From NCBI GenBank assembly GCA_029261065.1, contig JAJDCB010000026.1, forward strand, positions 18,715 to 82,714: a stretch of 64,000 bases of DNA, read 5' to 3'. Positions 713 to 30,070 of the stretch are shown here, in pieces. Under the pieces are notes generated by a model. That model saw only the letters and a program-made list of their open reading frames with translations. It searched no databases and was not told the origin of the DNA. The stretch's first letter is position 1. Every line of letters starts with the position of its first letter. Origin of the DNA: Candidatus Omnitrophota bacterium. Its GTDB lineage: Bacteria; Omnitrophota; Gorgyraeia; Zapsychrales; Zapsychraceae. The position numbers and the translations under genes are program-made.

Positions 713-1123
713 TTACTTGTCCTTCTTTTTAATTACGATGTGATCGCCCACAGAGGTTTTACTTGAAGAAATGACGCCAACGGGTAACTCAATGGCGTAA
801 TTAGCCTTCCAATATATGGCACTTAATCGATTAGGTTTAATATCATTAACTATACCTACCACATAATTTTCTTTATTAAGAAAAATAACATCAATAGAAA
901 ATTCCATAAAAAACATATGAATAGAATTACACTTTGTGATAATTAGGGCCTCATCCTTAAATAATTTCTTTCTCCCAAGCAATCCTTTCATACGTGTCCA
1001 AAAGGTGTTGGCGAGTAAGCCATTGTCGGCGAGAGATGTATTTTTGGTTTGGTTAAGAATTTGAAAGGATAAGTCTTTATGGCTTTGAGATGATTGTAAG
1101 TGGTTGCTCATTTGAAGCCACAC
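713..1123 (-). CDS. DUF192 (COG1430) family protein
   Basis: Motifs MKGLLGR...IHMFFM...IDVIFLNKENYVVGI...AIELPVGV...VGDHIV match the DUF192 pattern. Co-oriented immediately downstream of the cpaF-like gene. Confidence 0.55.
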   Translation of the reverse strand: MWLQMSNHLQSSQSHKDLSFQILNQTKNTSLADNGLLANTFWTRMKGLLGRKKLFKDEALIITKCNSIHMFFMEFSIDVIFLNKENYVVGIVNDIKPNRLSAIYWKANYAIELPVGVISSSKTSVGDHIVIKKKDK

Positions 1124-1198: not shown

Positions 1199-3370
1199 CT
1201 ACGAGTCTTTTTTGTTAAATATATTTTTATCCATTTGAAGACCTCGGGTAATAAAATCATCGTAACATTTTGGAATATAACCTGTGGTTTGATAATCACC
1301 CAAGACGACACCACCTTCACCAATGCCTGCCTGCTTATAAACAAAAACATCTGCAAGCTCCAATTGAAACTCTTTATCTAACCCAAGCGTTTCAGTAATT
1401 CCGGTAATTTTTCGTGTCCCATCAGACATCCTATTAACATGCACAACAATTTGAATAGCTGAGGAAATCATCTCGTTAATAGCACGAACGGGAAGCTCGA
1501 CACCACTTAACAAAATGAGAGAATGCAACCTTGTAATCGCATCTCTTGTGGAGTTGGCATGAAGGGTTGTCATGGATCCATCGTGCCCCGTGTTCATAGC
1601 TTGAAGCATATCTAAAACCTCGCCCCCTCGACACTCACCAATGAGGATTCGGTCCGGTCTCATACGAAGACTGTTAACAAATAAATCTCTAATAGTAACA
1701 GCACCTCGTCCTTCAACGTTCGGTGGACGAGTTTCTAACCGCCCCCAATGACTCTTTTTCAAACGTAACTCAGCAGCATCTTCAATGGTTAAAATACGTT
1801 CCTCGTCGGGGATAAATTCCGAGATAACATTAAGCAGGGTTGTCTTACCAGCACCCGTTCCCCCCGATACAATAATATTTTTTCGCGTCAAAACACACGC
1901 TTTAATAAAATCTCTCATATCAACCGTTAAACTTTTATATTTTTCTAATAAGTCTGTTGATTCTAATTTTTCATGAGCAAATTTTCGAATCGTAATCATA
2001 GGACCATTTAATGAAAGTGGTGGGATAATGGCATTAACACGAGATCCGTCGGGTAAACGGGCATCAACCATAGGTGTTGACTCATCAATTCTTCTTCCAA
2101 GAGGGGCGATGATTCTATCAATAATGGCTCTCATCTTGTCATTCGATATAAATTTTCTATTTGTAAAAACAAGCTTACCGCTTTTCTCAACGTAAATTGT
2201 GTCTTTATTGTTAGCCATAATATCCGTGACTTCTGGATCTGCCAAAAACTCCTCCAAAGGTCCTAAACCAAGGGCTTCATTAACGATATCCTTTACTAAA
2301 CGCGTCCGCTCATCGTGTGAACCTATGGTTCCCCCACTTTCTTCCAATAAAAGGTTTCCAACAATTTCTTCTGAACTCTTCTTAACTTTTAGAGCGGCAC
2401 TCGGATCGCTTAATGTATCAATCGTAATACCATCTAAATTCAATCTTTCGACGAGCTTTTCATGAATTTTTTGTTTGAGTGCGAAAATTTCGGATTCTTC
2501 TGTTGTATACCCCGCATCCGGTCCCGGTCCCGAAGGTACACCTGTGGTAACACCAAACTTTTGCCAAAATTTATCTGGTTGCTCTAAACCTTCTGTTGTT
2601 CGTAATGTTTCGGTATCCGCTGGCTTTACAAAAATGGCTTCCTTAATTAGCATACTAATTGTTTTAACAAAAGCCTCTGTAACTTTACTTCGAGGGCTAT
2701 CAACGACACAAGGAATCCCTTGATTTAATGCAATTCCAACCGTTTTACCATCAGATGGAATGTGACTAAATATTTCACAAGGCAAGGCCGAACGCACTTC
2801 CTGCCAGGCAACACTACCTCGAGATTCAGAACGATTTAAGATAAGCTTAACCATCTTTAGAGGATATTGTAAGTTTTGCAAAACCTCCAAACACCACTTT
2901 ATTTGGTAAACAGCAAGAATGTCTGGGGTTGCGATTAGAAGAATGAGGTTGGAGTAATCAAGAACAGCAATCAAGTTTTCTGAAAAAGACTTACCTGCGT
3001 CGACAAAAATGTAATCATAGGCAGTGATAGCTTTTTTAAAAAATAATTTTATATTGTCTGGAGTAACTAAACTAATTTGTTGAGCATTTTTTATAGCTGG
3101 TAGGAAATCTATACCGCAGGAATGGGTTGTTACAAAACTTTTAACAGCATTTGGATCATCATTGCCTTCCAGTTGTCCTATGACATCAGCGATGCAATTT
3201 CTGGGTGATAAATTAAGCATGCGAGCCATGTCTTGGCTAGCCTGAAAATCAAGATCTATTAAAAGAACTTTTTTCCCTGTTAAGGACATTGCTGCCGCTA
3301 GATTAACAGTTGCAAAGGTCTTTCCAACACCCCCCTTAGAACTAAATATTGTTATAATTTTACAATCCAT
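1199..3370 (-). CDS. Fusion protein: N-terminal ParA/MinD-like (TadZ/CpaE-like) P-loop ATPase plus C-terminal CpaF/TadA (VirB11/GspE superfamily) secretion ATPase
   Basis: N-terminus has the deviant Walker [12 protein letters not shown] Gly/Pro linker follows ([14 protein letters not shown]). The C-terminal half has Walker [13 protein letters not shown] plus [18 protein letters not shown] and [14 protein letters not shown] motifs typical of CpaF/TadA. Confidence 0.8.
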
Positions 3371-3519: not shown

Positions 3520-5184
3520 CTAATTTTTTTGTAAACTATAAACAATAGGTATAGTGACATTTAATTCTTGCAGATCGGAGTTGGCGGGAAAACTAGAAAA
3601 TGGAGCAGAATTTTTTGCTGTTTCTAAAGCAATATCATCAAAAATATTGCGACCCGAAGATTCTTTAACCAAAGCAAAAGCAAGTGTTCCATCGTTAAGA
3701 ATAAGCATTCCAACCTTGACTGTTCCTTCCCATCCGTACCTTAAGGCTTCTTCTGGATAAACAACGCCTTTAGATATTTGTTTCTGAATGCTTCGCACAT
3801 AGGCTGTCATTTCGCGGGGAATCCCAGAATAATAAGGGGCAACATCTTTTATCGTTGGCGTCGCTAATCTTTGCGACTGAGAACTTTCATTACCCATCAT
3901 GGATGTCTTTGCGTTATCATCACTTTGTTCGTTATTATCTTCTTTTTCTGTAGATAAATCATTACGATACTTATGTAAAATACGAGGCGTTAGTGAAATA
4001 ACGATTTCCGTATCTGTTTCCGGCGTTGGCATAGATTTGCTACGGAAGAGAGCTCCGACGACAGGTACATTTCCTAGGAAAGGAACCTTTTTAATGCTCT
4101 CAGAACGTAATTCTCTAATTAATCCGGCCATAATAGTTGTTTGCCCATCGTCCAAAAATAAATGTGTCTGAGCACTTCTTGTGACAAAGGCGACATCATC
4201 ACCAACGGCATTGGCAGCATCAATATCGCTAATTTCAACACTCATTGAAATGTCAATTTTTTCTTTAATAATCGTTGGTGTAATCGACATAGATACACCA
4301 TATTCTTTATAAGCAACATTTGCTGATGTAACACCTTCAGATGTTGTGGTTGTTCTTACAGGAACTTCTCCACCTACTAAAAATGTTGCCTGCTCGCCAC
4401 TACTAACAAGTAGTTTTGGCTTTGACAACACTCGTCCTTTTCCTTCTTCTAATAAGGCATTAATTACGGACAATAAAGGCGTTGTGCGTCTAAAATCACC
4501 GATTTTAAAATAATCTGAAACGGAACCATCTAGGCTTGGCAATGTTTCCGCATATTTTAATATAATTCTACTATCGGCACCTGTTGACCAATCAAAACCT
4601 AAACTTTTAGTCAGAGTCGTATTAAGCTCTGTTACCTGCATATTAATTTCAAGTAAGTCGTCAATTTCTTCAAGTTTTGCCAGGTTTATAATATGATCGT
4701 CAAAAGGCGTTAAGATTTGATCTAAGTGATCTTCTCTATGTTCTGGAATGTACCCAGAAACAATAATTCGTCCTTCTTTTTTATTTATGTCTAAATCAAT
4801 CTTCGTAATTCTCGCGGAATCCAAAAGTTTTTGAATTCTCTTTTTAATATACTCTAGATCTTCTGCTGTTACATTAATGACAATTGGTCTCTTTCCATTT
4901 TCATCCCAAACAAATAAAGTTGTAATACCAACACTTTGCGCGACAAGTAAAATTTCATTGTCGTCGGCATCAACAATGTCGACAATATCTGGATCTGTTA
5001 TAGAAAGTCTTGTTAAGGTGTATACCTTTAATGTCACAAGTTCACCTTTGACCATTTGAACTTCATTTATATAGACGGTATCTATAACCTCGCTAAGTGC
5101 GTTTTTAGCAAGAAATGGCGCTGATACCATTGTGAGGACGATTAAAAAAGTAAAAAAGATCTGAGTATACGAATGTTTTTTCAT
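3520..5184 (-). CDS. CpaC/RcpA-type secretin with a C-terminal TonB_C-like domain
   Basis: Signal peptide, then a pilus-formation N-terminal (BON-like) region. Secretin core (KPKLLVSSGEQATFLVGGEVPV...). C-terminal ~95 aa has the TonB C-terminal pattern (YPEEALRYGWEGTVKVGMLILNDGTL...VKESSGRNIFDDIALETAKNSAPFSSFP...IPIVYSL). Confidence 0.75.
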   Translation of the reverse strand: MKKHSYTQIFFTFLIVLTMVSAPFLAKNALSEVIDTVYINEVQMVKGELVTLKVYTLTRLSITDPDIVDIVDADDNEILLVAQSVGITTLFVWDENGKRPIVINVTAEDLEYIKKRIQKLLDSARITKIDLDINKKEGRIIVSGYIPEHREDHLDQILTPFDDHIINLAKLEEIDDLLEINMQVTELNTTLTKSLGFDWSTGADSRIILKYAETLPSLDGSVSDYFKIGDFRRTTPLLSVINALLEEGKGRVLSKPKLLVSSGEQATFLVGGEVPVRTTTTSEGVTSANVAYKEYGVSMSITPTIIKEKIDISMSVEISDIDAANAVGDDVAFVTRSAQTHLFLDDGQTTIMAGLIRELRSESIKKVPFLGNVPVVGALFRSKSMPTPETDTEIVISLTPRILHKYRNDLSTEKEDNNEQSDDNAKTSMMGNESSQSQRLATPTIKDVAPYYSGIPREMTAYVRSIQKQISKGVVYPEEALRYGWEGTVKVGMLILNDGTLAFALVKESSGRNIFDDIALETAKNSAPFSSFPANSDLQELNVTIPIVYSLQKN

Positions 5185-5187
5185 GGT

Positions 5188-6033
5188 TTACAACTCTCTT
5201 CCTGCTCTAAAAATTTGAATGAATGGTTCCACTTCATCAGAATCATCGTCAGAAACCTCATTGACCACGATACTAGATTTTGGTAGATCCAACTCTGTTC
5301 CTTGTCTCTCAAGAACATAATCTGCAAGAGCATCCCAAGAGGCAACTTGCATTTCTTTAGTGGACCTTTCAGAAGGGGACCTTAGTGTTAATTGTAGGCG
5401 TCCAAAAGACTGCGCAAAGGATAGAAGCGAGGCTTCTTCTGGATTAACGGCAAGTGTTACATTTAATTGTTTAGTTTGTTGTTGTGTTTGATAGAGTACG
5501 GCGTTTCCAACGGGCTTAAAATTTGCCCCAACAGCAAGGACTTGAACATTTTGAAATAACACACTTGTTACTTTTGTGTTATCTTGTGATTCGCCTGGTT
5601 TAGGAATTTTTAAATGGCCAATGATGTCAACAAAATCACCTGGATTAATCAAACCGCCAACCGCAGACAACGAATCAAGCAATACGGTCATCGCTCGTTT
5701 CCCAGGCGGAGTTACTACTGAGAAAACAGTGCTGTCGACTATTTCTTTTGGTGCTCCCGGACCAACATTACCTGCTCCACGTGGTTGGGAGGCGAGATGT
5801 TTTTGTTGTTTTGCTAAAGAAACTTGATTTTGTTCTAACTTCTTTAGTTGTCCTCTTAATCCTTCAAATTCTTGAATAATTTTAGAGCTTTTCTTCTCAT
5901 AATTTTTTACGATAATCTTACGTTGTTCGTCAATACTACTCTTAACATATTGTGCTGTTAAATAGGCTGCAACCAAACCTAATCCTATCGCTAAAGCTAA
6001 TGTTGCAAACTGTTTTTTATTTTCAATATTCAT
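5188..6033 (-). CDS. CpaB/RcpC-like Flp pilus assembly protein
   Basis: N-terminal TM segment, coiled coil, and a C-terminal RcpC-like region (...LNVTLAVNPEEASLLSFAQSFGRLQLTLRSP). Stop overlaps the cpaC start (translational coupling). Confidence 0.55.
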   Translation of the reverse strand: MNIENKKQFATLALAIGLGLVAAYLTAQYVKSSIDEQRKIIVKNYEKKSSKIIQEFEGLRGQLKKLEQNQVSLAKQQKHLASQPRGAGNVGPGAPKEIVDSTVFSVVTPPGKRAMTVLLDSLSAVGGLINPGDFVDIIGHLKIPKPGESQDNTKVTSVLFQNVQVLAVGANFKPVGNAVLYQTQQQTKQLNVTLAVNPEEASLLSFAQSFGRLQLTLRSPSERSTKEMQVASWDALADYVLERQGTELDLPKSSIVVNEVSDDDSDEVEPFIQIFRAGREL

Positions 6034-6088: not shown

Positions 6089-7048
6089 CTATTTCAATAG
6101 ATCGCTGTTTATCTCTACAGAACCTTTTTCTCTTAATTCATTGATATATTCAAGGATCACTTTTTGCTGCTTATCCAACGTAATTTGCTGAATAATTGTA
6201 TTTTTAACCTCTTCAAAAGGAATCTGTTCTCCGCCTTGCTTATCTTCCAGCTTAATGATGTAGTAACCATCCGGACCTTGAAAAACATCACTTGTCTCTC
6301 CCTCACTAAGAGCTAATAAAGGAGCAGCCATTTGCTCAAAAGGAACATCATTAATAAAACCCAAATCTCCGCCCTTAAGCGACGTGTCACTTTTTGAGTG
6401 CTCTCTTGCTAAAGATGCAAAGTCTTCACCACTTTGGATTTTTAACTTTATCTCATTTGCTTTGGATTCGGAATCGAGCTTGATTTCGCGAACTTGCCAT
6501 TGCCCAGGCTGTGTTATTAAATCTTTGTTGAGATCATAAAACTCTCTGGCCTCATCGCTCGATACTTTAACATCTTCGACAAGACCTCGAGCAAGTTCTC
6601 TAACAATAACTGTTCGGCGAAATTCTTCGACTGCGGCGACAATATCTTTACTATTGGCTAAGCCTGATCTTTCGGCCTCATTAACTAATAGCTGTTGTCT
6701 TACCAACTCTTCTAAGACTAACTCGCGAGCTTCTAAATTTGAAAGATCAAAATCTGGAACAACTTCTTTTAAGGCTTCTAGCCTATCATTAAATTCTTCT
6801 AAGGTTAAAGACCAATTGCCAACAACCGCAACCGTGTTGCCTGTTAAGGTAGGTTGACTTTTAGCTTTTTCTTTCGGTGCTTCGGACTGTTGTTTTTCTT
6901 CCTTGGCAGTATTCTTTTCTTCTGTTTTGGAAAAACGATCTTTGATGCTTTTAAAAACTTCACAACCCAACGAGCTTGTAACTGTAATAAAGCAAAAAAG
7001 AATTAAAAATGCGTGGTACTTGTGGTGCCCAATTTTATTCTTTTTCAT
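6089..7048 (-). CDS. Secreted parvulin-type peptidyl-prolyl cis-trans isomerase (SurA/PrsA-like)
   Basis: Signal peptide. The rotamase domain has FASLAREHSKSDTSLKGGDLGF...DVFQGPDGYYIIKL. First gene of the minus-strand cpaB-cpaC cluster. Confidence 0.7.
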   Translation of the reverse strand: MKKNKIGHHKYHAFLILFCFITVTSSLGCEVFKSIKDRFSKTEEKNTAKEEKQQSEAPKEKAKSQPTLTGNTVAVVGNWSLTLEEFNDRLEALKEVVPDFDLSNLEARELVLEELVRQQLLVNEAERSGLANSKDIVAAVEEFRRTVIVRELARGLVEDVKVSSDEAREFYDLNKDLITQPGQWQVREIKLDSESKANEIKLKIQSGEDFASLAREHSKSDTSLKGGDLGFINDVPFEQMAAPLLALSEGETSDVFQGPDGYYIIKLEDKQGGEQIPFEEVKNTIIQQITLDKQQKVILEYINELREKGSVEINSDLLK

Positions 7049-15341: not shown

Positions 15342-17282
15342 TTATTTTCGATTAAGTTTATAGAGAGCAAAAAGATCCGAAATATAAACAAGCGATAATG
15401 TTTTGGTTGGTTTTGGCGCTTCTCCTCGAAAAAAGACTATATAATCGACATTATAATCCCGAATCGCTCGCATGACAGCTTGCTTGTACGATGCGCGCGG
15501 TGCGTTAAATTTAAAACTACCTAAATGCTCTAGCTTAACCAAATAGTCTTTAATCGATGCGATATCAAGAGCAAACGTTCCTGTGTCGGCTTCGGAAAAA
15601 ACTAAACTGCGTTGGGCATGCAAACGAAACGTATTGTAAGGAATCTCTGGAAATAAAAAGAGGGCGTCTTTCTCTGTGTGTGTGCGGATATGTTTGCCCA
15701 GCACCTCAACATCTTTATGAATAAGTTCAATAGGGGTTCGGGCACGCCTCATATCCTTAATATGACGCCCTGTGTATCCACTCAAAAAAACACACAGCGG
15801 AATAAGTAGCATTATACGAAGAATCATTACCTTAGCCCCCTGCGGAACAAAATAATACACAAAGGCCGATAAAAGCATCAGCCAGCTGACAAGTACAAAG
15901 AGAGGCGATTGAAAAGGATTCGCGTGAACCAGCTGGCACATTTTGATAAGACCCCAAATAATAATACCTGTGCTAAAAAGCACGCACAGACAAAGCTTGG
16001 GCCAAACACGTATATAATATTTCAATCCCCATCCACGAAGAGCCTCTGCTGGCATACTTGATGATACCCCTTCTTTATTTACTTGCACGACACCTGTAAA
16101 AATCCAAATCGGTAAAAGTAATATTAAAAAACCAATAGAACTAAAATCTTTGTTCGTAAATGTCAGCATAGCAAAACCCATCACTACCCCTAACAAAAGA
16201 TTTTGTCTCTCTCCTAAAGCCTTCCAACATCCACTGATATATATCCCGATAAGAATAAATGAAAGAATACCGATTTGACGATTTAAAAGTAAACACAACA
16301 CTGTTAAATTTGGATGTATGTAGCTAGCCCAAAATTGCAGAACCAAACTTAAGAAAATAATAACACCCATAACATGAAACTTAGGTTGAGAGCGAAACTC
16401 TTTTGAAATTAATAAACTTGTTCCGTAAAGAGTAATAAGAAAAATTATAAATTTTAAACTAATCAAACCTTGAAAAAATGAACTAAAGGCCTCTGATAAC
16501 GGAAGCCTGCCGAAAAAGAAAAAGTAGGGGGCATAGTGTCTTATAAGCTTAAAAAATTCCGCAAACTCTTCTGGACCAAGTCCAGCCGACGTCCCTGTTT
16601 TGGACCTCAGATAAAAAATGACAACCGGCAAACTAAACAGCGTAAACAGGCCTATGGATTCTAAACATACACGAAATTTGTGTCGCAACTTTAATAAAAG
16701 ATAAGTAACAAGATAAAACATCGGAAAGAGTGCAAAGACAAGATGAATATTCATGGTAACACCTAAAATGATTGACGCTGTACGGTATCTGCTTTTAAAG
16801 AAATAATATAATCCGGCAAACATAGGCGCCAAGGCAAACTCAGCGTGCGAAAATGTCCGATACAAAAACATCTCAGAACGAAGAACGACCATAAACCCTA
16901 AAACACAGAACAAACTTAAAACGCGCTTTTTAGTTATCAAAAGCCAAAATTTATACATCCAAAAAAACATTAACAGACGGGAAACAAAAAAGAGAAGGGC
17001 GTAAACAGGTTTAATGTGCTCAGTTAGGACGATTCTACCCAAACTTTTGTAAAAAAAGGTAAGGTAATGAGCATGTTTCGTCTGTACGTAATCATCACGT
17101 GGATACAACTCCGGATCAATCGCCATCTTTAAAAACGGAATCTCAATCAACTGATCATCCATAGCATAACGATACCCGTGACTTATGTAAAAAATTCCGG
17201 TTATAAGCAAGGCGAAAAATAAGGGGTGGGATAAAATAGAAAAAAATGAGTGTTTTTTTAATTTCATTGGACTTCTAAACAT
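15342..17282 (-). CDS. Large polytopic membrane protein, possible GT-C-fold glycosyltransferase (ArnT/PMT-like)
   Basis: More than 12 predicted TM helices. Acidic DD motif in the first extracytoplasmic loop (YRYAMDDQLIEIPF). C-terminal soluble domain. Convergent with the sugar-modification operon. Confidence 0.35.
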   Translation of the reverse strand: MFRSPMKLKKHSFFSILSHPLFFALLITGIFYISHGYRYAMDDQLIEIPFLKMAIDPELYPRDDYVQTKHAHYLTFFYKSLGRIVLTEHIKPVYALLFFVSRLLMFFWMYKFWLLITKKRVLSLFCVLGFMVVLRSEMFLYRTFSHAEFALAPMFAGLYYFFKSRYRTASIILGVTMNIHLVFALFPMFYLVTYLLLKLRHKFRVCLESIGLFTLFSLPVVIFYLRSKTGTSAGLGPEEFAEFFKLIRHYAPYFFFFGRLPLSEAFSSFFQGLISLKFIIFLITLYGTSLLISKEFRSQPKFHVMGVIIFLSLVLQFWASYIHPNLTVLCLLLNRQIGILSFILIGIYISGCWKALGERQNLLLGVVMGFAMLTFTNKDFSSIGFLILLLPIWIFTGVVQVNKEGVSSSMPAEALRGWGLKYYIRVWPKLCLCVLFSTGIIIWGLIKMCQLVHANPFQSPLFVLVSWLMLLSAFVYYFVPQGAKVMILRIMLLIPLCVFLSGYTGRHIKDMRRARTPIELIHKDVEVLGKHIRTHTEKDALFLFPEIPYNTFRLHAQRSLVFSEADTGTFALDIASIKDYLVKLEHLGSFKFNAPRASYKQAVMRAIRDYNVDYIVFFRGEAPKPTKTLSLVYISDLFALYKLNRK

Positions 17283-17539: not shown

Positions 17540-19993
17540 TTATGCTTCGTCTTTATGCACGACATTGGCAATGGAGCTTACAATGTCATCTTTACTTAAA
17601 TTAATGAGTTTAACACCAACCGCACTGCGTCCTGTTTGACGAACGTCACTTGGGGCACATCTAACAACCATGCCTTGTTTGGTTACTGTCATAACTTCAT
17701 CACCTTCGACAACAGCTAAAACGCCAACAACAGGTCCGTTACGATCTGTGACCTTAACGTTAATTATACCTTTTCCTCCACGAGACTGTGTTCGGTAATC
17801 TTCAAAATTAGATCTTTTAGCATATCCTTTTTCTGTTACCGATAAAAGAGTGCTTCCTGTTTTACTGATGTCTGGTGGGAAGACTTGCATGCTGACGACT
17901 TGATCGGATTTTCTAAGACCAATTCCCTTAACTCCTTTTGCGCCTCGTCCCATATCTCGTATTTGCTTCTCAGAGAAACGCAAAGATTTACCTTCCTTCG
18001 TTGCCAAAAGAACATCATATTTTCCTGTGCTTAAAGATGTTCCTATTAAAGCATCCCCTTTGTCCAATGTGATTCCTACAATTCCCGATTTGCGAGGATT
18101 GCTAAAGGCGGAAAGTTTTGTCTTTTTAACATTTCCCTTGGCTGTTGCCATAACAAGAGACATGGTGTCTGTAAATTCTTTGACCGCTACAATGGAGCTA
18201 ATATTTTCATCCTTTGCCAAAGATAGCAGATTAACAATATTTTTTCCCTTAGCATGTCTTGCCGCTATTGGTATCTCATAAACTTTAAGCCAGCGAATAA
18301 TACCTTTGTTTGAGAAGACAAGTAGATAATCTTTAGATGATGCGACAAATAATTGTCTGACAAAATCTTCTTCTCGCGTTGTCATCGCAGCAACACCCTT
18401 ACCACCACGTTTTTGTTTTCGATACGATGAAACGGCTAACCGCTTGATATATCCGGCATTACTAATCGTAATCGCCATGTCTTCTTCAGCAATTAAATCT
18501 TCTATTTCAATTTCTTCCGCTTTTGCCGCAATCTCTGTTCGACGCGGATTAGAATATTTTTTCTTAATAGCAGCTAATTCATCTTTAACTATATCATTTA
18601 TCATTTGCTCAGATGCTAAAATAGAGCGGTAGAGATCGATATCTTTTAATAAGGCCTTATATTCATCATCAATTTTATGTTGTTCTAGAGCTGTTAGCCT
18701 TTGCAGTTGCATTTCCAAAATGGCTTGCGCTTGGATTTCGGAAAGTTTAAAATTTTTCATCAAATTGACTTTAGCGATCGACGACGATTTTGACTCACGA
18801 ATCGTTTTAATAACTTGATTAATAAAGTCTAAAGCAATTTTCAATCCTTCTAGGATATGAGCTCTTCTAAGGGCTTTGTCTAAATCAAATTGTGTACGAC
18901 GACGGACAACAACACGACGATGTACGATAAAGTTTGAACATATTTGTTTAAGATTTAAAATTTGTGGACTGTTGTTTACAAGGGCAAGATTAATAACACC
19001 GAAGGTTGTTTCCAATTGTGTATGTTTGTACAAATAATTAAGAACGATTTGTGGCTGAACATCTCGGCGTAGTTCGATAACAATACGAATACCATCTTTA
19101 TCAGATTCATCACGAAGATCTGTAATGCCATCAATTTTTTTAAGTTGAACAAGTTTTGCGATAGCCTCTATCAAATTGGATTTATTAACCTGATATGGGA
19201 TTTCCGTAACAACAATCGTATCTTTATTTGCCTTTTGTCGTTCAATCGTTGCTCGCGCACGAACAGTTAGCTTGCCGCGCCCCGTTTCCTGAGCATTTTT
19301 GATTCCTTCTCGACCACAAATAATCCCACCTGTAGGGAAATCCGGACCCTTTACAAACTTAGCTAGCTGTTTGATTGTCGCCTCTGGCGTATCAATTAAA
19401 TGAGTGATCGCATCAATAGACTCACCCAAATTATGCGGAGGCATATTTGTGGCCATACCAACGGCAATTCCACTAGAACCATTGATAAGTAAATTTGGAA
19501 TAACAGATGGCAGACAGGTTGGTTCTTTTAAAGAGCCATCGTAATTAGGGACAAAATCAACCGTGTTCTTTTCAATATCATTTAACATCTCATGAGCAAT
19601 ACCGGTAAGTCGGGCTTCCGTATAACGCATCGCGGCCGCAGCATCCCCGTCGACAGAACCAAAATTTCCTTGGCCATCCACTAAAGGGTATCTCATGCTA
19701 AATTCCTGAGCCATGCGCACCAAGGTATCATAAATCGCTGAATCCCCATGAGGATGATATCCCCCCATAACGTCCCCAACGATCTTCGCACATTTTCTAA
19801 ACGGTTTGTTTGGAGCTAAACCCATGGCATGCATCCCATAAAGGATACGTCTATGTACAGGTTTTAAACCATCTCTGACATCCGGTAAGGCCCTTCCGAC
19901 AATAACACTCATCGAATAAGAAAGATAAGAGCTCTTCATCTCTTCTTCTATAAAAACAGGAACTATTTTTTCTCGAATAGATAAATCACGCAT
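17540..19993 (-). CDS. gyrA: DNA gyrase subunit A
   Basis: AMRYTEARL active-site Tyr region. 817 aa. Confidence 0.95.
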
Positions 19994-20015
19994 TGCTTCT
20001 TACCTTTCACCTTTA

Positions 20016-22798
<2,783 letters not shown>

Positions 22799-22848: not shown

Positions 22849-23937
22849 CTAGATCCTCATCGGAAGAGCCAAATACAAATAATCATCTATTCTCATAACA
22901 GCAGGTTTATCTACACCTAAAAGCTCCATATCAATATCCTCTTCATCAATATTCTTAAGAAAATCGATGAGAAATTGGGGATTAAAACCTACAACTAATT
23001 CGTTTCCTGCGTATTCGACAGGAATTTCCTCTCTAGATTCTCCAACATCAGGTGTCGTCTTTGAGATGACCATTTTATCCTTAAATATCTCGAATTTAAC
23101 GGCTTGGAAATCCGGAGTTGCTAACAAATTGGCGCGACGGATCGAAAATAAAAAATCTTTAGTATTCATTTTAATCCGATTTTTAGCTGGTTTTGGAATA
23201 ACTTGGTTATAATTTGGAAAATCGCCCTCAATCATTCTTGTCGCAATAAGAACACCATCAATATCAAATAAAATCTGATTAACCCCAATGATAAAAGAAA
23301 CCTGGCCATCTTCTTTTAAATTTCGACTAATTTCCATAACAGCCTTAATAGGCAAAATAACAGAAACTTCCTTTTTTATAGATTTTTCTAGTTTTTTCTC
23401 CGATTTAGCTAATCTTCTTCCATCAGTTGCCACAACACGAATTAAATCATTTTGGATCTCCAAAAGAACTCCGTTTAAAACATATCGAGATTCTTCGTGT
23501 GAAACAGCAAAAGACGTTAATCTAAACATTTCCTTTAAAATAGCCTGATCTATCTGGATAACCTCTTTGTCCTTAAACTCCGGAAATTTGGGGAATTCTT
23601 CTTTAGGAAGCCCTATGAGTTTAAACCGGCAATTAACACCTTCAATATCAATCTGATTGTTTTTCTTAGCATGAATAGTTATATCCCCAGCAGGAAGTTC
23701 TTTGACAATGTCGCTAAATCTTTTCGCTGGAATAGTTATTGCCCCTTCTTCAAGAGTTTCCACAGGTAATTCACAGGATATACCTATGTCTAAATCAGTA
23801 GCATTGAGCTTAATGTGACCATCGCGAGCTTCCATTAATATGTTAGAAAGTATAGGTAGAGTCGCTTTAGGCGATACCACGTTTTGAACTGTATGAATAC
23901 CGTTTAACAAAATATCTTTAGAAAGTTTAATTTTCAT
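22849..23937 (-). CDS. dnaN: DNA polymerase III beta sliding clamp
   Basis: 362 aa with the three-domain beta-clamp pattern, directly downstream of dnaA. Confidence 0.9.
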   Translation of the reverse strand: MKIKLSKDILLNGIHTVQNVVSPKATLPILSNILMEARDGHIKLNATDLDIGISCELPVETLEEGAITIPAKRFSDIVKELPAGDITIHAKKNNQIDIEGVNCRFKLIGLPKEEFPKFPEFKDKEVIQIDQAILKEMFRLTSFAVSHEESRYVLNGVLLEIQNDLIRVVATDGRRLAKSEKKLEKSIKKEVSVILPIKAVMEISRNLKEDGQVSFIIGVNQILFDIDGVLIATRMIEGDFPNYNQVIPKPAKNRIKMNTKDFLFSIRRANLLATPDFQAVKFEIFKDKMVISKTTPDVGESREEIPVEYAGNELVVGFNPQFLIDFLKNIDEEDIDMELLGVDKPAVMRIDDYLYLALPMRI

Positions 23938-24085
23938 TGTTAATACATCCTCCTATTATACTAAGGTATAATGTCCCCAATTAGTATTAGTCTAAGTAGG
24001 CCCTGTGGAAAACTAGAACAACTTCGAAAACAATTTAAAACAAACAACTTATAGAAAAAAATCCCGTTAATAACCTTGGGATGAA

Positions 24086-25429
24086 TTATGAATCTCGTTG
24101 TAAAGTATGGGATAACTCTAAAAGGATATTTTTCATCGAAGAATTTTTACCTTCTTCTCCTTCAATCTTTTTACAAGAATGCAACACAGTTGTGTGGTCT
24201 TTACCTCCAAAGGCATAGCCGATCTCTGGCAAAGACATGTGTGTTAACTTACGCGTGAGAAACATAGCTACTTGGCGCGCGTTTACGATATTTTTATTTC
24301 GCTTTTTAGCCCGCAATTCTGTTACCGGAATATTAAAATATTCAGAGACACATTTTTGCACCTGCTCAACGCTAATCGTTTTGGTTGTTTCTTTAACCAT
24401 ATCTTTAAGAACTACTTTGGCCATGTCTAATGTAATGTCTGTATCATCTAATAAAGAATATGCAGCAACACGAATGAGGGCTCCCTCCAATTCGCGAATG
24501 TTTGTTTGAATTTGTTCGGCAATAAAAATAATAACCTCATCTGGAATGTTGGCCGGTTCCAACTCTGCTTTTTTTCTTAAAATGGCAACGCGCGTTTCAA
24601 AATCTGGAGGTTGAATATCTGTAATAAGTCCCCAGGCAAAACGGGAACTTAACCTCTCCTCTAGATTTGCAATTTCTTTTGGAGGCCTATCAGATGTTAT
24701 GATGATTTGTTTGTGGTTGTTGTGTAGATTATTAAAGGTGTGGAAAAATTCTTCTTGTGTTGATTCTTTACCAGCAATAAATTGAATATCATCAATAAGT
24801 AAAACATCTATCTCTCTATATTTTTTTCTAAAGGCAACAGTTGACCGATGACGAATGGCATCTATCAGTTCGTTTGTGAACTTCTCCGACGACATATAAC
24901 AAATTTTTATATCTGGAGATATCTCTCGAATTTTTTGTGTAACAGCCTGCATAAGATGAGTTTTTCCTAAGCCCACTTGGCCATAAATAAAAAGCGGATT
25001 ATATGCTTTTGCTGGCGATTCGGCAACGGCAAGACTTGCCGCACAGGCGAAACGATTAGATGGGCCGACAACAAAGTTATCAAAATTAAATCGAGTATTT
25101 AAGTTTTGGGAAATGTTTGGGCCCTTTTCTGGAACGACTTGTTGGGCTTCATTTAGTCGTAAGTGAGACTCGTCTTCTAAAATTTGGGAGTTAACCAAAT
25201 ATTCTATTTGAACGCTATACGTGGCGAGATTGTTGACGGTTTCTTGAATATAGGATTCGTAATGTTCTACAATCCAATTTTTAAAGAAATCGTCGGGGGT
25301 TTCGATAATAAGAGTTTCAGGATCTTTTTCTTTAACCTGAATAGTTGAAAACCACGTTTCGTAAGAAGTGGTTCCTACCTTATTTTTAATTTCCTCTTTG
25401 GCTTTATCCCAAATTTCTGAAAGACTCAT
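24086..25429 (-). CDS. dnaA: Chromosomal replication initiator DnaA
   Basis: AAA+ Walker A (GQVGLGKTHLMQA), sensor motifs, and C-terminal DNA-binding domain (VAMFLTRKLTHMSLPEIG). Confidence 0.95.
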   Translation of the reverse strand: MSLSEIWDKAKEEIKNKVGTTSYETWFSTIQVKEKDPETLIIETPDDFFKNWIVEHYESYIQETVNNLATYSVQIEYLVNSQILEDESHLRLNEAQQVVPEKGPNISQNLNTRFNFDNFVVGPSNRFACAASLAVAESPAKAYNPLFIYGQVGLGKTHLMQAVTQKIREISPDIKICYMSSEKFTNELIDAIRHRSTVAFRKKYREIDVLLIDDIQFIAGKESTQEEFFHTFNNLHNNHKQIIITSDRPPKEIANLEERLSSRFAWGLITDIQPPDFETRVAILRKKAELEPANIPDEVIIFIAEQIQTNIRELEGALIRVAAYSLLDDTDITLDMAKVVLKDMVKETTKTISVEQVQKCVSEYFNIPVTELRAKKRNKNIVNARQVAMFLTRKLTHMSLPEIGYAFGGKDHTTVLHSCKKIEGEEGKNSSMKNILLELSHTLQRDS

Positions 25430-25881
25430 ATTTTGACAGATAAATTTCTAACAAACATGACCAGTGGATTACTCCAAAGGTGTATTTGTCTATTATTGTT
25501 AAGGTTAAACGCGTAGAAAAAAGTTGTACACAAGTTTTCCACAGCAGTGAATAAACTTTATTTTCTTTAAGTCCTAGAAAATCTTGATGATGTGTTGATG
25601 TTGTTTCCGCGAGTACTACTTTGAAATGTTTATTTCAAAAGATTGTTTATTATAACAAAGAAATTTTTTATTACAATTCATATTTTAAGTCTCCTATAGC
25701 GATGGGAAACAAATTCAATAAAGATAAAAGCAATATGGTGTAATAAAAGGGTCGTCGATAAAAGAGTTAATTTATGTAGAATTAAAAGTTGTTGGTATCA
25801 CTTAAGATTTAAATCTTTTTGGGATTTATTTAGGGTTAAAACGCTTGACTAACAAAGGCTCTGTGTTATAATCTTCGAATT
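25430..25881. promoter_or_regulatory. Candidate oriC region (dnaA-rpmH intergenic)
   Basis: AT-rich 450-bp spacer at the point where gene orientation diverges. DnaA-box-like TTTTCCACA at ~25525. The same 9-mer (as TGTGGAAAA) lies in the dnaA-dnaN spacer at ~24003. Confidence 0.5.
25845..25872 (+). promoter_or_regulatory. Sigma-70-type promoter for rpmH (TTGACT-N16-TGtTATAAT)
   Basis: -35 TTGACT at 25845-25850 and extended -10 TGTTATAAT at 25864-25872. The ATG at 25882 is only ~10 nt downstream, so the mRNA would be near-leaderless. Confidence 0.5.
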
Positions 25882-26019
25882 ATGAAAAAGAATTTAACTA
25901 CACCAACGATCATAAAAGGTAAACGAACCCACGGTTTTAGAAAAAGAATGCAAACGGCCGATGGGCGCGCTGTGTTAAAAAGACGACGAGCCAAGGGCCG
26001 TACTCGACTGAGCAAGTAG
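25882..26019 (+). CDS. rpmH: 50S ribosomal protein L34
   Basis: [45 protein letters not shown] (45 aa). Below the ORF-track size cutoff, so translated by hand. Confidence 0.9.
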
Positions 26020-26030
26020 TCCAAACTCCT

Positions 26031-26240
26031 ATGGTTTGGTTTATTACACAAATTATCAAAGTTTATCAAAAAATAAGTCGATACTGCTTCCCACGATGCT
26101 GTCGATATTATCCTTCGTGCTCCCAATACGCCCTAGAATCCATACAAAAGTACGGTGCTTTTAAGGGGCTCTACAAATCAATCATACGTATTCTCAAGTG
26201 TTCACCCTTTTTTAAAGGTGGATTTGATCCTGTAAGGTAA
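26031..26240 (+). CDS. yidD: Membrane protein insertion efficiency factor YidD
   Basis: [19 protein letters not shown] motif. Confidence 0.85.
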
Positions 26241-26244
26241 TATT

Positions 26245-27915
26245 ATGGAAAAACGTTTTGTAATAGCTATAATACTATCCTTTTTAGTATTATATGTATG
26301 GTCGCTCACAAATCCTCAAAAAAGCAAACCACTCCTCCAAAACAAAACATCACAAATTATTGAAAATAAAGAATTTACAGAAAACAAGAGACCTTCTTTA
26401 GATTCAAACACAGATAGACCTGCCCAGCTGGCCCCCAGCAACGACTCCAACATTAAAGAAGAACCCTTTGTTGCTGAAACGAGTAAATTCGTTGCTAGTT
26501 TTTCAAGTATCGGAGGAAATCTTAAGGAAATAACCCTTAAAGAGTACAACCACACTTTACCCGTAAGATTTTTTTTAAACCTACCAGAATTTGAACATGT
26601 ACCATTTGTCTTAAATGATTCCGCCAGAAATTTTGTGTCATATGTATATCAAAATAACGAAATTAAGGTTGTCAAAACATATCATTTGTCCAATGAGGAT
26701 AATTTGATCAATGTTGCGTTGGAAATCACCAATAAAACGGAAATGTCCAAACTGATGGATATCAAAATAGATAGTTTTAGTGTGGATTTTTCCAGTTTGG
26801 ACAAAAAAAGACAGCGGCTAAACATGCTTATGGAGTACGCCATATCACATAACGGAACGATTGACAGAAAGAAAAATATATCTAAGTTTAAGCAAGAGAA
26901 CGATATAGCTGTAAACGACACAGTTAATTGGATCGGTTTTAGAGATCAATATTATTGTACCATTGTACAACCAGAATTTGAGACAAATAGCTACTATATT
27001 GAATCTGTAAACGAGAAAAAGGCTAGATTAGGGATGAAAGTCGTTGAAAACAGGATAGAACCGAATAATAGGGTGACGTTTGAATCTACCGTGTATATAG
27101 GGCCTCAAGATGTAAAACTTTTAAATTCCTATGACAGAGGATTTGAAAAGATAATAAGTTTTGAGATTGGAGGATTTTTTGACATAATGGCCCTTGGCCT
27201 AACAGATAAGATAGCAAAAATATTGTTAATATTACTAAATTTTATACACAAAATTGTCCCAAATTGGGGGATGACGATTATATTATTTGCTGGAGTTATA
27301 TATGGAATAACGTATCCATTTACCTATAAAAGTATGCTTTCTATGAAGAAATCGCAAAGTAGGATGCAGGTTATACAGCCAGAATTAAAGAAGATACAAG
27401 ATAAATATAAAAGCAATCCCAAAAAGATGCAAGAAGAGATAATGAAGATTTACAAAAAGCACAACTTTAACCCTTTAAGTACGTTGGGGGGGTGTTTGCC
27501 TATGTTGTTCCAAATGCCTATATTTGTAAGCCTTTACCAACTTTTATGGAGAAATTACGCCTTTAAAGGGGCCAATTTCTTATGGATTAAGGATCTTTCT
27601 GAGCCGGACAGACTATTTGGGTTACCTTTTAATTTACCTTATTTTGGAAACGAATTCAACATTTTACCAATTCTATACGGGCTGATGATGTTTTTTCAGC
27701 AAAAAATGCAGTCAAAGAATATGACCGTTTCTGATCCCGCCCAGGCTGAAGCTCAAAAGATGATGGCCAAGATATTCCCAGTTATGTTAGGTGTTTTATT
27801 TTACAAATTTGCCAGTGGACTTACACTATATTTTACTGTATACTTCTTGTTGACTACGCTGTCACATTGGAAAATGAACAAGACCCTTAAAATGGAAGAG
27901 CAGAAAGCGGCGTGA
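26245..27915 (+). CDS. yidC: Membrane protein insertase YidC
   Basis: N-terminal TM segment, large periplasmic domain, and C-terminal five-TM Oxa1 core. Confidence 0.9.
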   Translation: MEKRFVIAIILSFLVLYVWSLTNPQKSKPLLQNKTSQIIENKEFTENKRPSLDSNTDRPAQLAPSNDSNIKEEPFVAETSKFVASFSSIGGNLKEITLKEYNHTLPVRFFLNLPEFEHVPFVLNDSARNFVSYVYQNNEIKVVKTYHLSNEDNLINVALEITNKTEMSKLMDIKIDSFSVDFSSLDKKRQRLNMLMEYAISHNGTIDRKKNISKFKQENDIAVNDTVNWIGFRDQYYCTIVQPEFETNSYYIESVNEKKARLGMKVVENRIEPNNRVTFESTVYIGPQDVKLLNSYDRGFEKIISFEIGGFFDIMALGLTDKIAKILLILLNFIHKIVPNWGMTIILFAGVIYGITYPFTYKSMLSMKKSQSRMQVIQPELKKIQDKYKSNPKKMQEEIMKIYKKHNFNPLSTLGGCLPMLFQMPIFVSLYQLLWRNYAFKGANFLWIKDLSEPDRLFGLPFNLPYFGNEFNILPILYGLMMFFQQKMQSKNMTVSDPAQAEAQKMMAKIFPVMLGVLFYKFASGLTLYFTVYFLLTTLSHWKMNKTLKMEEQKAA

Positions 27916-27942
27916 TTAGAGGGTATTTGAAGGAAAGAGGCT

Positions 27943-28143
27943 ATGAACGAAAAATTACATAAAGGAATAGAAGTAGAGGGTACTAACGTAGAAGACGCAA
28001 TAGTGAAGGCTCTAGAGCAGCTAGAGGTAACCAGAGACGAAGTTAACATCAAGATCGTTTGTGAAGAAAAAAAGGGCCTTTTTGGAATGGAAGGGGCTAA
28101 GCCCGCCAAGATAAAGGTAACCCTTAAAGAAAAAACAGAATAA
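27943..28143 (+). CDS. Jag_N-domain-only protein (truncated Jag/KhpB homologue lacking KH/R3H)
   Basis: The 66-aa product matches the Jag N-terminal domain and sits in the jag position after yidC. No KH/R3H coding follows in any frame. Confidence 0.5.
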   Translation: MNEKLHKGIEVEGTNVEDAIVKALEQLEVTRDEVNIKIVCEEKKGLFGMEGAKPAKIKVTLKEKTE

Positions 28144-28187
28144 GGCTTGATTTTTTAGCCATTTATAAGAAAATATATACAGATTAA

Positions 28188-28227
28188 TGTTTCACGTGAA
28201 AACAAATGTTTGAGTTTCACGTGAAAC
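28188..28227. promoter_or_regulatory. Two parS centromere-like sites (TGTTTCACGTGAAAAC and GTTTCACGTGAAAC)
   Basis: Matches to the parS consensus tGTTTCACGTGAAACa at 28188-28203 and 28214-28227, immediately upstream of parA. Confidence 0.7.
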
Positions 28228-28258
28228 GTCAAATAACATTCACCAATCCCAAAGTCCT

Positions 28259-29116
28259 ATGGGAAAAACAATATCCATATGTAATCAGAAAGGCGGCACT
28301 GGTAAAACAACTACCAGTGTTAATCTTTCGGCTTCTTTGGCAGAACTTGGCAAAAAAGTTCTTATTGTTGATGCCGACCCGCAAGGAAATGCAACAAGCG
28401 GGGTAGGGGTTAATAAGAATGAATTAGATATATCTGTATACGATCTTCTTATAAATAAACATACAGCACGGGAAGCCATCATCAAAGACGTCTGTCCTAG
28501 ATTGGACATTGTTCCTTGCAATATTAATCTTACAGCTGCAGAGATAGAACTTGTTGGTGCTTTGTCCAGAGAAACAAGACTAAAAAAAGCGCTAGAACAG
28601 GTTAAAAAAGAGTACGATTTTATATTTATCGATTCGCCACCATCCTTAGGCCTACTAACCTTAAACGCTCTGGTTGCCAGCGACTCTATAATAGTACCTA
28701 TACAATGCGAGTTTTACGCGCTAGAAGGGGTCACACAGCTCTTAAATACTTTAGGTCTAATAAGAGATGGTCTTAATCCGGATTTGGCCATAGAGGGCGT
28801 ATTAATGACCATGGCTGATTACCGGACTAACTTGACGAACGAAGTAATAAAAGAGATAAGTTCCTATTTTAAAGATAAAGTATATAAGGCCGTAATTCCT
28901 AGAAATATACGTTTAAGTGAAGCCCCAAGTCATGGTAAACCCATTAATCATTACGATAACACGTCAATTGGTGCGAAAAAGTATTTGGAGTTGGCACATG
29001 AACTTGTTGGGAAAAATCAAGACGACTATAAAGCTATGCAAGTAAACAGGTTAGGTGGTGTCGAGTCTGAGCGTACTGACGAATCTTCAATTAGTGATCA
29101 AGGTCCCATTGCTTAA
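28259..29116 (+). CDS. parA: Chromosome partitioning ATPase ParA/Soj
   Basis: Deviant Walker A KGGTGKTT. Confidence 0.9.
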   Translation: MGKTISICNQKGGTGKTTTSVNLSASLAELGKKVLIVDADPQGNATSGVGVNKNELDISVYDLLINKHTAREAIIKDVCPRLDIVPCNINLTAAEIELVGALSRETRLKKALEQVKKEYDFIFIDSPPSLGLLTLNALVASDSIIVPIQCEFYALEGVTQLLNTLGLIRDGLNPDLAIEGVLMTMADYRTNLTNEVIKEISSYFKDKVYKAVIPRNIRLSEAPSHGKPINHYDNTSIGAKKYLELAHELVGKNQDDYKAMQVNRLGGVESERTDESSISDQGPIA

Positions 29117-29218
29117 TTAATTTAATTTGTTCATATTTTGAACGTAAAATACGTTGTTAGTAAAGAAATTCAATATTTAGCTTTATCCGTATCTGAAGAA
29201 TAAAACATAGGGGGATAA

Positions 29219-30070
29219 ATGGATAACAAAGCCTTAGGCAAAGGTCTTTCAGCCTTAATACCTGAAAAAGCAGAAGAAGCTATTAAACCACAAGATGGTT
29301 TAATGCAGCTAAAAATTGAGAGTATAAAAGATAACAGTTTACAGCCTCGCGTTAATTACGATGAGTCAAAACTTGATGAGCTTAAAGCATCCATTAAAGA
29401 GAAGGGTGTGTTACAACCCATTTTGGTAAGACAAAAAGGGGATGGGTATGAAGTTGTTGCAGGTGAGCGACGGTTAAAAGCAGCAAGGGCCCTAAATTTA
29501 AAAGAATTGCCTGTTATTATTAAAGAAGTTTCGGATAAAGAGGCTTTTGTCATCGCCCTTGTTGAAAACATTCAACGCGAAGATTTAAATCCTATTGAGG
29601 AAGCTCAATCTTACAAAAAGTTAATGGAAGAATTTTATTATACACAAGAGGATGTCGCCAAATCTGTTGGAAAAAATAGAACAACAGTTAGCAACATGAT
29701 GCGATTGCTTAAGCTACCTGAAGAGATACAACAAAGTTTGTTCGAGGGTGTTTTAACAGTGGGCCATGCACGCGCATTGTTGGCGGTAGAATCTCTCGTC
29801 GATAAAAAGAAATTATTTGAAGAAACAATTAAAAATAAATATTCAGTTAGAGATTTAGAAAGTAGAATTCGTCGTTTAGAGCAAGCTGGATCAAAACCGA
29901 AAAAAGCACAGAAACAAAAAATGCCAGAGTTGTTGGTGTTAGAAGACAACTTACAGAAAACGTTAGGAACAAAAGTGAACATTTCGTCATCTAAAAAAAG
30001 AGGAAAGATCACAATTGACTATTATTCTTTCGATGACTTAGATAGAATTTTACAATTAATAAAAAAATGA
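29219..30070 (+). CDS. parB: Chromosome partitioning protein ParB/Spo0J
   Basis: ParB box (GERRLKAA) and HTH (TQEDVAKSVGKNRTTVSNMMRLL). Confidence 0.9.
   Translation: MDNKALGKGLSALIPEKAEEAIKPQDGLMQLKIESIKDNSLQPRVNYDESKLDELKASIKEKGVLQPILVRQKGDGYEVVAGERRLKAARALNLKELPVIIKEVSDKEAFVIALVENIQREDLNPIEEAQSYKKLMEEFYYTQEDVAKSVGKNRTTVSNMMRLLKLPEEIQQSLFEGVLTVGHARALLAVESLVDKKKLFEETIKNKYSVRDLESRIRRLEQAGSKPKKAQKQKMPELLVLEDNLQKTLGTKVNISSSKKRGKITIDYYSFDDLDRILQLIKK

Follow-up and report, generated by a model that had tools for sequence, protein, structure and literature searches.

The locus described here raises the question of why the outer-membrane pore of a pilus machine should end in a domain of the kind found at the C-terminus of TonB. 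It lies in a 64,000-nucleotide stretch of DNA (here the window) from a Candidatus Omnitrophota bacterium (contig JAJDCB010000026.1, positions 18,715 to 82,714 of the forward strand), in which an uninterrupted open reading frame (ORF) at 3520..5184 on the minus strand encodes a protein of 554 residues. Because of its pil_N N-domain, its secretin core and the Tad genes that flank it, we identify this as a secretin of the Tad type (RcpA/CpaC), the outer-membrane pore of a machine for Tad (Flp, type IVc) pili. An earlier note on this DNA, made from the sequence without database searches, had read the span 3520-3810, which comprises the stop codon (3520-3522, minus strand) and residues 459-554, as a C-terminal, periplasmic TonB C-terminal domain (TonB_C) on a CpaC-type secretin, and had considered this atypical for secretins. 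Both points are borne out. The fusion is real, ancient and under selection, and it is its function that we infer.

The TonB_C domain occupies residues 453-554 (3523..3828, minus strand), on the basis of profile matches, AlphaFold models and fold matches. The Pfam profile PF03544 matches residues 474-551 of the full protein with 53.4 bits (E = 3.7e-14) and the tail alone with 57.7 bits (E = 1.6e-15), against a gathering cut-off of 24.6. The NCBIfam model tonB_Cterm (TIGR01352) scores 46.5-50.1 bits (cut-off 27.1), and TonB_2 (PF13103) scores 23.7 bits on the tail alone (cut-off 22). By sequence, the nearest solved structures come from the TonB C-terminal domain of H. pylori (6sly and 5lw8; E ~1e-5, 31-32% identity). 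In a full-length AlphaFold2 model with a mean predicted local distance difference test score (pLDDT) of 79, the tail is ordered with pLDDT 87-95 over residues ~455-550, and modelled on its own it reaches a mean pLDDT of 91.3 and a predicted template modelling score of 0.82. Its elements are helices at 457-473 and 478-483, strands at 487-496 and 501-508, a helix at 513-526 and a strand at 540-549. Because the first helix (457-473) is a conserved N-terminal addition to the fold, the module begins about six residues (~18 nt) upstream of the span first proposed, near 3828 at residue 453-457; the earlier placement at the end of the ORF was correct and its start was not.

The best 24 Protein Data Bank (PDB) matches of the tail-only model are the C-terminal domains of TonB, HasB, FusB or TolA throughout. 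Foldseek ranks 6sly first (template modelling score, TM, 0.79/0.78; root mean square deviation, rmsd, 2.3 Å over 104 columns), and the list includes 9dc4_T (TM 0.77, rmsd 1.5 Å), TolA-III (1lr0, TM 0.52), TonB-BtuB (2gsk), TonB-FhuA (2grx), TonB-FoxA (6i97), TolA-TolB peptide (6s3w), TolA-g3p (2x9a) and FusB-ferredoxin (9hi3). The fold is thus common to the tail, to the TonB domains of H. pylori (6sly/5lw8), Neisseria (9dc4/9ddz) and E. coli (2gsk/2grx), and to HasB and FusB, and the extra N-terminal helix is also present in the long H. pylori TonB construct (TM 0.78-0.80). The YP and SSG motifs of TonB are kept in the tail, as is the C-terminal strand that pairs with the TonB box, here residues 540-549, which is highly conserved. 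The tail family as a whole is conserved much more tightly than the generic TonB_C signature. Profile scores and predicted structures together confirm the tail as a genuine TonB C-terminal domain, predicted to be well folded.

Upstream of the tail, residues ~405-452 (48 aa; 3829..3972, minus strand) form a disordered, unconserved tether rich in Ser/Asn/Gln/Asp/Glu, in agreement with the low-complexity Ser/Asn/Gln/Asp linker described previously. Its pLDDT is below 50 at residues 409-451 of the full-length model, its identity to homologs is 11% with a column entropy of 3.29 bits, and its length among homologs varies from 31 to 156 aa (median 44). Across the family the tether is A/E/S/K/P-rich, with the S/N/Q/D/E-rich composition being that of the window protein. 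A conserved tail behind a variable tether is the pattern expected of a functional head that is flexibly attached. The secretin core that forms the outer-membrane pore is at residues ~177-404 (3973..4656, minus strand), where PF00263 scores 138.4 bits over residues 243-403 (cut-off 27.5) and Foldseek matches RcpA (8odn), PilQ, GspD and InvG at E values of 1e-13 to 1e-26; beyond residue ~406 the sequence is no longer homologous to RcpA. The Tad-type N-domain T2SS-T3SS_pil_N spans residues ~42-106 (4867..5061, minus strand; pLDDT 90-96) and is matched by PF13629 over residues 48-105 with 43.6 bits (cut-off 23). Between these lies a second periplasmic, N1/BON-like ring-type alpha/beta domain (residues ~110-171; 4672..4857, minus strand), modelled as helix-strand-strand-helix-strand at pLDDT ~90 and with YscD BON-like matches that fall below threshold. 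The Pfam profile search gave no match to STN, AMIN or N0 in the secretin.

All 120 of the best homologs (41-58% identity, from many independent assemblies) share the PF13629, PF00263 and PF03544 architecture. A scan of one genome per GTDB species recovered 543 candidate stretches encoding a relative, of which we compared the best 80; one of the two scan patterns lies inside the tail, so the survey is skewed towards fusion-bearing genes. Among these 80, matches at identities down to 33% still extend to residue ~550, and by our own ORF calls the core and tail are in a single ORF in 78. The other two (L054 and L070), where ORF calling failed to return both parts in the same frame, are the sole hints that the fusion could be an artefact, either two distinct genes (secretin and TonB) joined by a frameshift or misassembly, or a chance TonB_C match. 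With an uninterrupted ORF, TonB_C scores twice the curated cut-offs, a confident fold prediction and the same architecture throughout the top homologs and in nearly all loci, we regard the likelihood of this as negligible, and the frameshift that the earlier note had named as a danger is ruled out by conservation of the fusion in independent assemblies.

The tail is as well conserved as the secretin domain, with a mean identity to the query of 66%, compared to 63% for the Pfam secretin domain, 57% for pil_N and 39% for the second N-domain, and it holds 16 of the 45 invariant columns in 18% of the protein length. Family-specific motifs include YGWEGTVK, ILNDGTLA, KESSG and TIPIVYSL, and a subset of lineages has two tandem TonB_C domains (proteins of 764-826 aa). 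These comparisons show that strong purifying selection acts on the tail, which is old, sometimes duplicated and, throughout the lineage, fixed in a single reading frame. All hits with an informative organism name are Omnitrophota, including 'Ca. Aceula', 'Ca. Zapsychrus' and the most divergent named cluster, and the fusion is shared across the phylum. Among named hits there is no evidence of it outside Omnitrophota, although unnamed metagenomic hits and those with generic 'uncultured Planctomycetales' titles are not assignable. We found no description of the secretin-TonB_C fusion, either by keyword searches of the literature or in the principal genomic study of Omnitrophota, where the phylogeny of RcpA was analysed (PMC10066038), a 2026 complete-genome survey (10.64898/2026.06.07.730766) and a 2025 survey of TonB/TolA evolution (PMC12204202). 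The architecture is already visible in databases under misleading names, as the proteins are called either 'TonB family protein' or 'CpaC', and the automatic label 'TonB family protein' masks their identity as secretins.

Comparison with characterized Tad secretins suggests what the tail may do. The pil_N domain and secretin core are common to P. aeruginosa RcpA (8odn), C. crescentus CpaC and the Omnitrophota protein, and RcpC/CpaB and a TadZ-TadA ATPase are likewise encoded with the latter, with Flp/TadE-like pilins downstream in syntenic loci. The C-terminus of canonical RcpA is a short, disordered, TadD-binding tail, whereas the Omnitrophota secretin has instead a tether of 31-156 aa and one or two folded TonB_C domains, the head being placed exactly where RcpA has its pilotin-binding tail. 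In P. aeruginosa it is the last four residues of RcpA that bind the pilotin TadD, an interaction essential for assembly (PMC10499894). In Caulobacter, CpaC is encircled by a belt of the OmpA-like lipoprotein CpaD, its proposed anchor to peptidoglycan (PMC13170226), and RcpC docks on the RcpA N-domain (PMC12307814). The missing pilotin-binding tail is a difference of the variant and not of the family. We looked for a TadD/CpaD-like accessory gene among the 999 ORFs within 6 kb on either side of the secretin gene in 82 loci, which were grouped by single-linkage clustering (with some neighbouring families merged) and annotated where a cluster is present in at least 21 of the 82; within those flanks no OmpA-like or tetratricopeptide repeat lipoprotein is conserved.

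By analogy with these systems, the TonB_C heads would be a multivalent docking or anchoring device acting in cis, most likely through strand addition to a short peptide belonging to a partner in the envelope, and we give this a probability of roughly 0.6. The C-terminus of the secretin would face the periplasm at the outer membrane and lie outside the barrel, so that each of the ~13-14 subunits would hang one TonB_C head into the periplasm. Together the heads could dock the secretin onto an envelope partner, which would be a protein that presents a peptide similar to a TonB box, the cell wall itself being a less likely candidate. Docking by strand addition is suggested because the structurally characterized relatives (TonB, HasB, FusB and TolA-III) each act by capturing a partner, and for TonB and TolA the partner is a short exposed peptide that is bound by beta-strand addition to the sheet. 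In this way the head may take over the work of the TadD pilotin, the CpaD OmpA-like belt, the AMIN domains of PilQ or TsaP, with docking serving to position, stabilize or anchor the pore against the pull of a retractile adhesive pilus. The CpaD belt, PilQ AMIN, the TsaP LysM domain of type IVa pili and the GspD S-domain/pilotin pairs are all periplasmic modules around or beneath the barrel that position, stabilize or wall-anchor it (PMC13170226, PMC10499894). Those anchors are separate proteins or N-terminal domains and have other folds, whereas here a TonB/TolA-type fold is fused in cis at the C-terminus.

Several points weigh against docking onto a peptide partner. The mechanism is drawn from homology and position; a pilotin or accessory gene could sit elsewhere in the genome, the search having covered 6 kb on either side; and the search for motor and receptor genes (below) covered the window and the neighbours of the loci. 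The pattern inside the tail also biases the fusion survey, and tandem arrays of 2-7 TonB_C domains in relatives resemble cell-wall-binding repeats and favour binding to peptidoglycan.

The most probable of the alternatives, although one we consider unlikely, is such a direct peptidoglycan anchor, with the TonB_C heads binding the wall and tethering the pore to the sacculus as an equivalent of PilQ AMIN, TsaP LysM or the CpaD belt. The relatives of the tail bear on it. When 1.84 billion representatives were searched with the tail alone, 170 clusters reached E <= 1e-10, of which 146 were retrieved. A secretin core is present in 89 of the 146, and many of the short relatives are N-terminally truncated fragments of the secretin-TonB_C fusion. 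Others include Peptidase_M56 proteins with 4-6 TonB_C copies and proteins built of 5-7 tandem TonB_C domains; examples of multi-TonB_C proteins are P0125 (named Omnitrophota), P0156 (named KSB1), P0217, P0212 and P0262. Canonical TonB-like proteins are also among the retrieved relatives; one of them, P0259 (39% identical), is encoded directly beside a Plug-plus-barrel TonB-dependent receptor in a cobalamin cluster, and this one speaks for peptide docking. Duplication of the module in some secretins, and its 3-7 tandem copies in relatives, are typical of avidity-based wall-binding repeats, and Kaserer et al. (2008) reportedly observed peptidoglycan binding by the E. coli TonB C-terminus. In current Ton models, on the other hand, peptidoglycan contact is reportedly ascribed to ExbD and not to the TonB C-terminal domain. 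The peptidoglycan contact raised in the earlier note is possible but gains no positive support: all 24 of the significant PDB matches of the tail are TonB/TolA-type partner-binding domains, and none has a LysM, OmpA, SPOR, AMIN, PG_binding or other peptidoglycan-binding fold. We note that other type IV and Tad secretins are held to peptidoglycan by accessory domains or proteins (PMC13170226).

The same search recovered TolC-like OEP proteins with two or three N-terminal TonB_C domains (P0216, P0225 and P0246; E values of 1e-12 to 1e-15 to the tail), which suggests a generic envelope tether over a Tad-specific protein partner and in this respect also favours wall binding. This family is small (14 hits), and its taxonomic placement is not established. 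Two of its genes (L083:6001-8391 and L085:6001-8076) adjoin resistance-nodulation-division (RND) pumps and are divergent from giant ORFs of at least 2,294 and at least 4,373 aa, an arrangement that recalls the 'TonB-domain' genes described next to giant genes in Omnitrophota (10.64898/2026.06.07.730766). In addition, it is the N-terminus of the MxcH receptor model NF038079 that gives a match to the tail. As in the secretin, the TolC-like OEP proteins and MxcH-type receptors have a periplasm-facing TonB_C covalently on an outer-membrane channel, although the OEP fusions involve a different channel family and carry TonB_C at the N-terminus rather than the C-terminus. Counting the OEP fusions and the MxcH model with the secretin fusion, TonB_C is thus joined to outer-membrane channels repeatedly and not in a single case. 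A broader and more speculative version of peptide capture, which we think rather improbable, is that TonB_C works upside down in this phylum, with heads on outer-membrane channels (Tad secretin and TolC-like) grabbing TonB-box-like peptides of inner-membrane or wall partners, possibly of an ExbD/TolR-type motor. If so, this would be an unrecognized, lineage-wide tethering or force-coupling system for outer-membrane machines, and the Tad secretin of these ultra-small predators or parasites would be a load-bearing or gated element.

The earlier note had also proposed an energy-coupling interface, in which the outer-membrane-tethered TonB_C would contact an ExbBD/TolQR-type motor (e.g. the ExbD/TolR periplasmic domains) and the proton motive force would drive secretin gating or pilus dynamics. 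ExbD periplasmic domains do cross-link to the C-terminal region of TonB. In the Ton, Tol and Myxococcus Agl-Glt systems a TonB_C-bearing protein anchored in the inner membrane links motors there to outer-membrane complexes, with its head contacting outer-membrane TonB-box proteins (PMC5349195). However, the topology of the secretin is inverted relative to these inner-membrane-anchored proteins (PMC5349195): TonB has an inner-membrane anchor and a Pro-rich spacer, and the secretin tail has neither and is attached at the outer membrane. There is no TonB-like N-terminal membrane anchor or transmembrane helix, the N-terminus being a cleavable signal peptide followed by secretin domains, and the tether is unconserved, variable in length and without a Pro-rich rigid spacer. 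The full-length TonB equivalogs NF008080 and NF008082 fall far short, with 14-15 bits where 265-418 are required (NF008082, 14 against 265). A Pfam search of 57 proteins, which take in almost all of the large ORFs of the 64 kb window, found no ExbB, ExbD, TolQ, TolR, TonB or TonB-dependent receptor, and there are none among the neighbour clusters present in at least 21 of the 82 loci. Moreover, Tad pili are driven by a cytoplasmic ATPase, which is encoded in the same operon. The Omnitrophota secretin is not a TonB protein, as it has no such membrane anchor, no Pro-rich spacer and, within the window and the neighbour clusters covered, no ExbBD/receptor association, and because the anchor that couples TonB to ExbBD is missing it is not itself a TonB-type energy transducer. 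Energy coupling is therefore very improbable, and of the two functions in the original suggestion it is anchoring that is plausible.

The N-terminus of the secretin bears on a further alternative, a self-assembly collar in which the 13-14 heads would bind each other, or an N-terminal motif of neighbouring subunits, and form a ring that stabilizes or gates the multimer without an outside partner. Upstream of the pil_N match, the mature protein has a conserved extension, EVIDTVYINE (residues 32-41; 5062..5091, minus strand), with a [VIL]-D-[ST] motif in which D35 is at least 90% conserved. The motif is present at the extreme mature N-terminus in 34 of 40 evaluable loci, a position relatively like that of a TonB box, which its sequence appears to resemble loosely, and a tether of at least 31 aa would be enough to reach down the barrel. 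The residues following D-[ST] are variable, however, several TonB_C-bearing homologs do not have the motif, and in the AlphaFold2 model residues 33-35 are a short strand directly before the N-domain. One paper reportedly concludes that dimeric TonB crystal forms do not occur in vivo. We regard a collar as improbable and prefer docking onto an envelope partner.

The start of the secretin gene differs from that in the public gene model. The ATG at 5184 is preceded by the rcpC stop codon (TAA, 3 nt before) and by a Shine-Dalgarno-like GGAAGAGAG, and it gives a normal signal peptide at residues 1-29 (5098..5184, minus strand) with a KK motif and a hydrophobic helix (residues 3-29 in the AlphaFold2 model). 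The otherwise identical database protein P0001 (536 aa) begins at M19, 18 residues later, with most of the signal peptide gone. Because it is coupled to the rcpC stop, follows a Shine-Dalgarno-like sequence and produces a normal signal peptide, the ATG at 5184 is well supported as a better start than M19.

The Tad operon is conserved and has the order lipoprotein PpiC/SurA-like isomerase, rcpC/cpaB, secretin, TadZ-TadA fusion, DUF192, a ~580 aa protein without Pfam matches, and Flp/TadE-like pilins. The rcpC/cpaB gene (5188..6033, minus strand) codes for a periplasmic alignment-ring protein of 281 aa (PF16976, 91.9 bits; TIGR03177 pilus_cpaB, 102 bits against a cut-off of 71), is present in 77 of the 82 loci and is translationally coupled to the secretin gene. 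Directly upstream of it is a gene for a PpiC/SurA-like prolyl isomerase (6089..7048, minus strand; Rotamase_2, 67 bits, with SurA_N matches below threshold) with a lipobox (...SSLGC|E), and, besides the window, 72 related loci encode a homolog of it. Wherever a lipobox is recognizable (65 homologs), the protein is a lipoprotein with D/E at +2, and the lipid Cys is followed by a semi-conserved C-D-x-[ILF]-x-x-[IL]-K-E-Y-F and then a low-complexity linker of ~47 aa. The isomerase may be a dedicated Tad chaperone. We also considered its N-terminal peptide as a TonB-box carrier and did not adopt this weak candidate, the peptide being semi-conserved and its hydrophobic positions (+4, +7 and +11) suggesting an amphipathic helix rather than a strand.

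Downstream of the secretin gene is a 723-aa fusion of a TadZ/CpaE-like ParA/MinD domain to a TadA/CpaF pilus ATPase (1199..3370, minus strand), two functions that are usually on separate proteins. AAA_31/CbiA/ParA matches lie at residues 3-250 and T2SSE (199 bits) at 367-644, with the TadA/CpaF part at ~329-660; TIGR03819 scores 320 bits, under its cut-off of 373. The gene is present in 80 loci and is syntenic in L002 as a 721-aa fusion. Directly downstream is a DUF192 (COG1430) gene (713..1123, minus strand; PF02643, 62 bits) that is kept in 58 loci, although we are not aware of any report that ties DUF192 to Tad systems. Next is the Pfam-less protein, of which the N-terminal part is in the window (1..~620, minus strand) with the remainder running off its left edge; it follows the DUF192 gene in 50 Tad loci (e.g. 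L001:14511-16274), and is apparently neither a membrane protein nor TadB or TadC, which were not found in the stretches examined. The Flp and TadE-like pilin genes are downstream of it in the syntenic locus L001.

The remainder of the window is housekeeping DNA round the replication origin (dnaA, dnaN, gyrBA, yidC and parAB). The origin neighbourhood (22849..30070) includes dnaN, dnaA (24086..25429, minus strand), yidC (26245..27915, plus strand) and parA/parB, with an 815-bp gap between dnaA and yidC, and gyrB and gyrA are at 17540..22517; the distance from the Tad operon to dnaA is ~19 kb. No Pfam profile matches, at E <= 1e-6, the 646-aa ORF at 15342..17282 (minus strand), which lies between gyrA and the sugar-modification genes.

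Secretins are known to diversify at their N-termini and to be served by pilotins or wall anchors that are separate proteins. An accessory domain that is folded, C-terminal and kept throughout a phylum is a new solution to secretin accessory function, and placing a TonB C-terminal domain on the outer-membrane side is the opposite of its arrangement in every characterized Ton, Tol and Glt system. The occurrence of TonB_C on TolC-like channels as well points to a wider pattern that deserves a census, and the tail, a soluble domain of ~100 residues, is a concrete experimental target. Omnitrophota are uncultured, ultra-small and probably predatory or parasitic, and Tad pili are their main candidate organelle for attachment to hosts (PMC10066038); because of this, how the pore is fixed in the envelope bears on how these bacteria grip their hosts.

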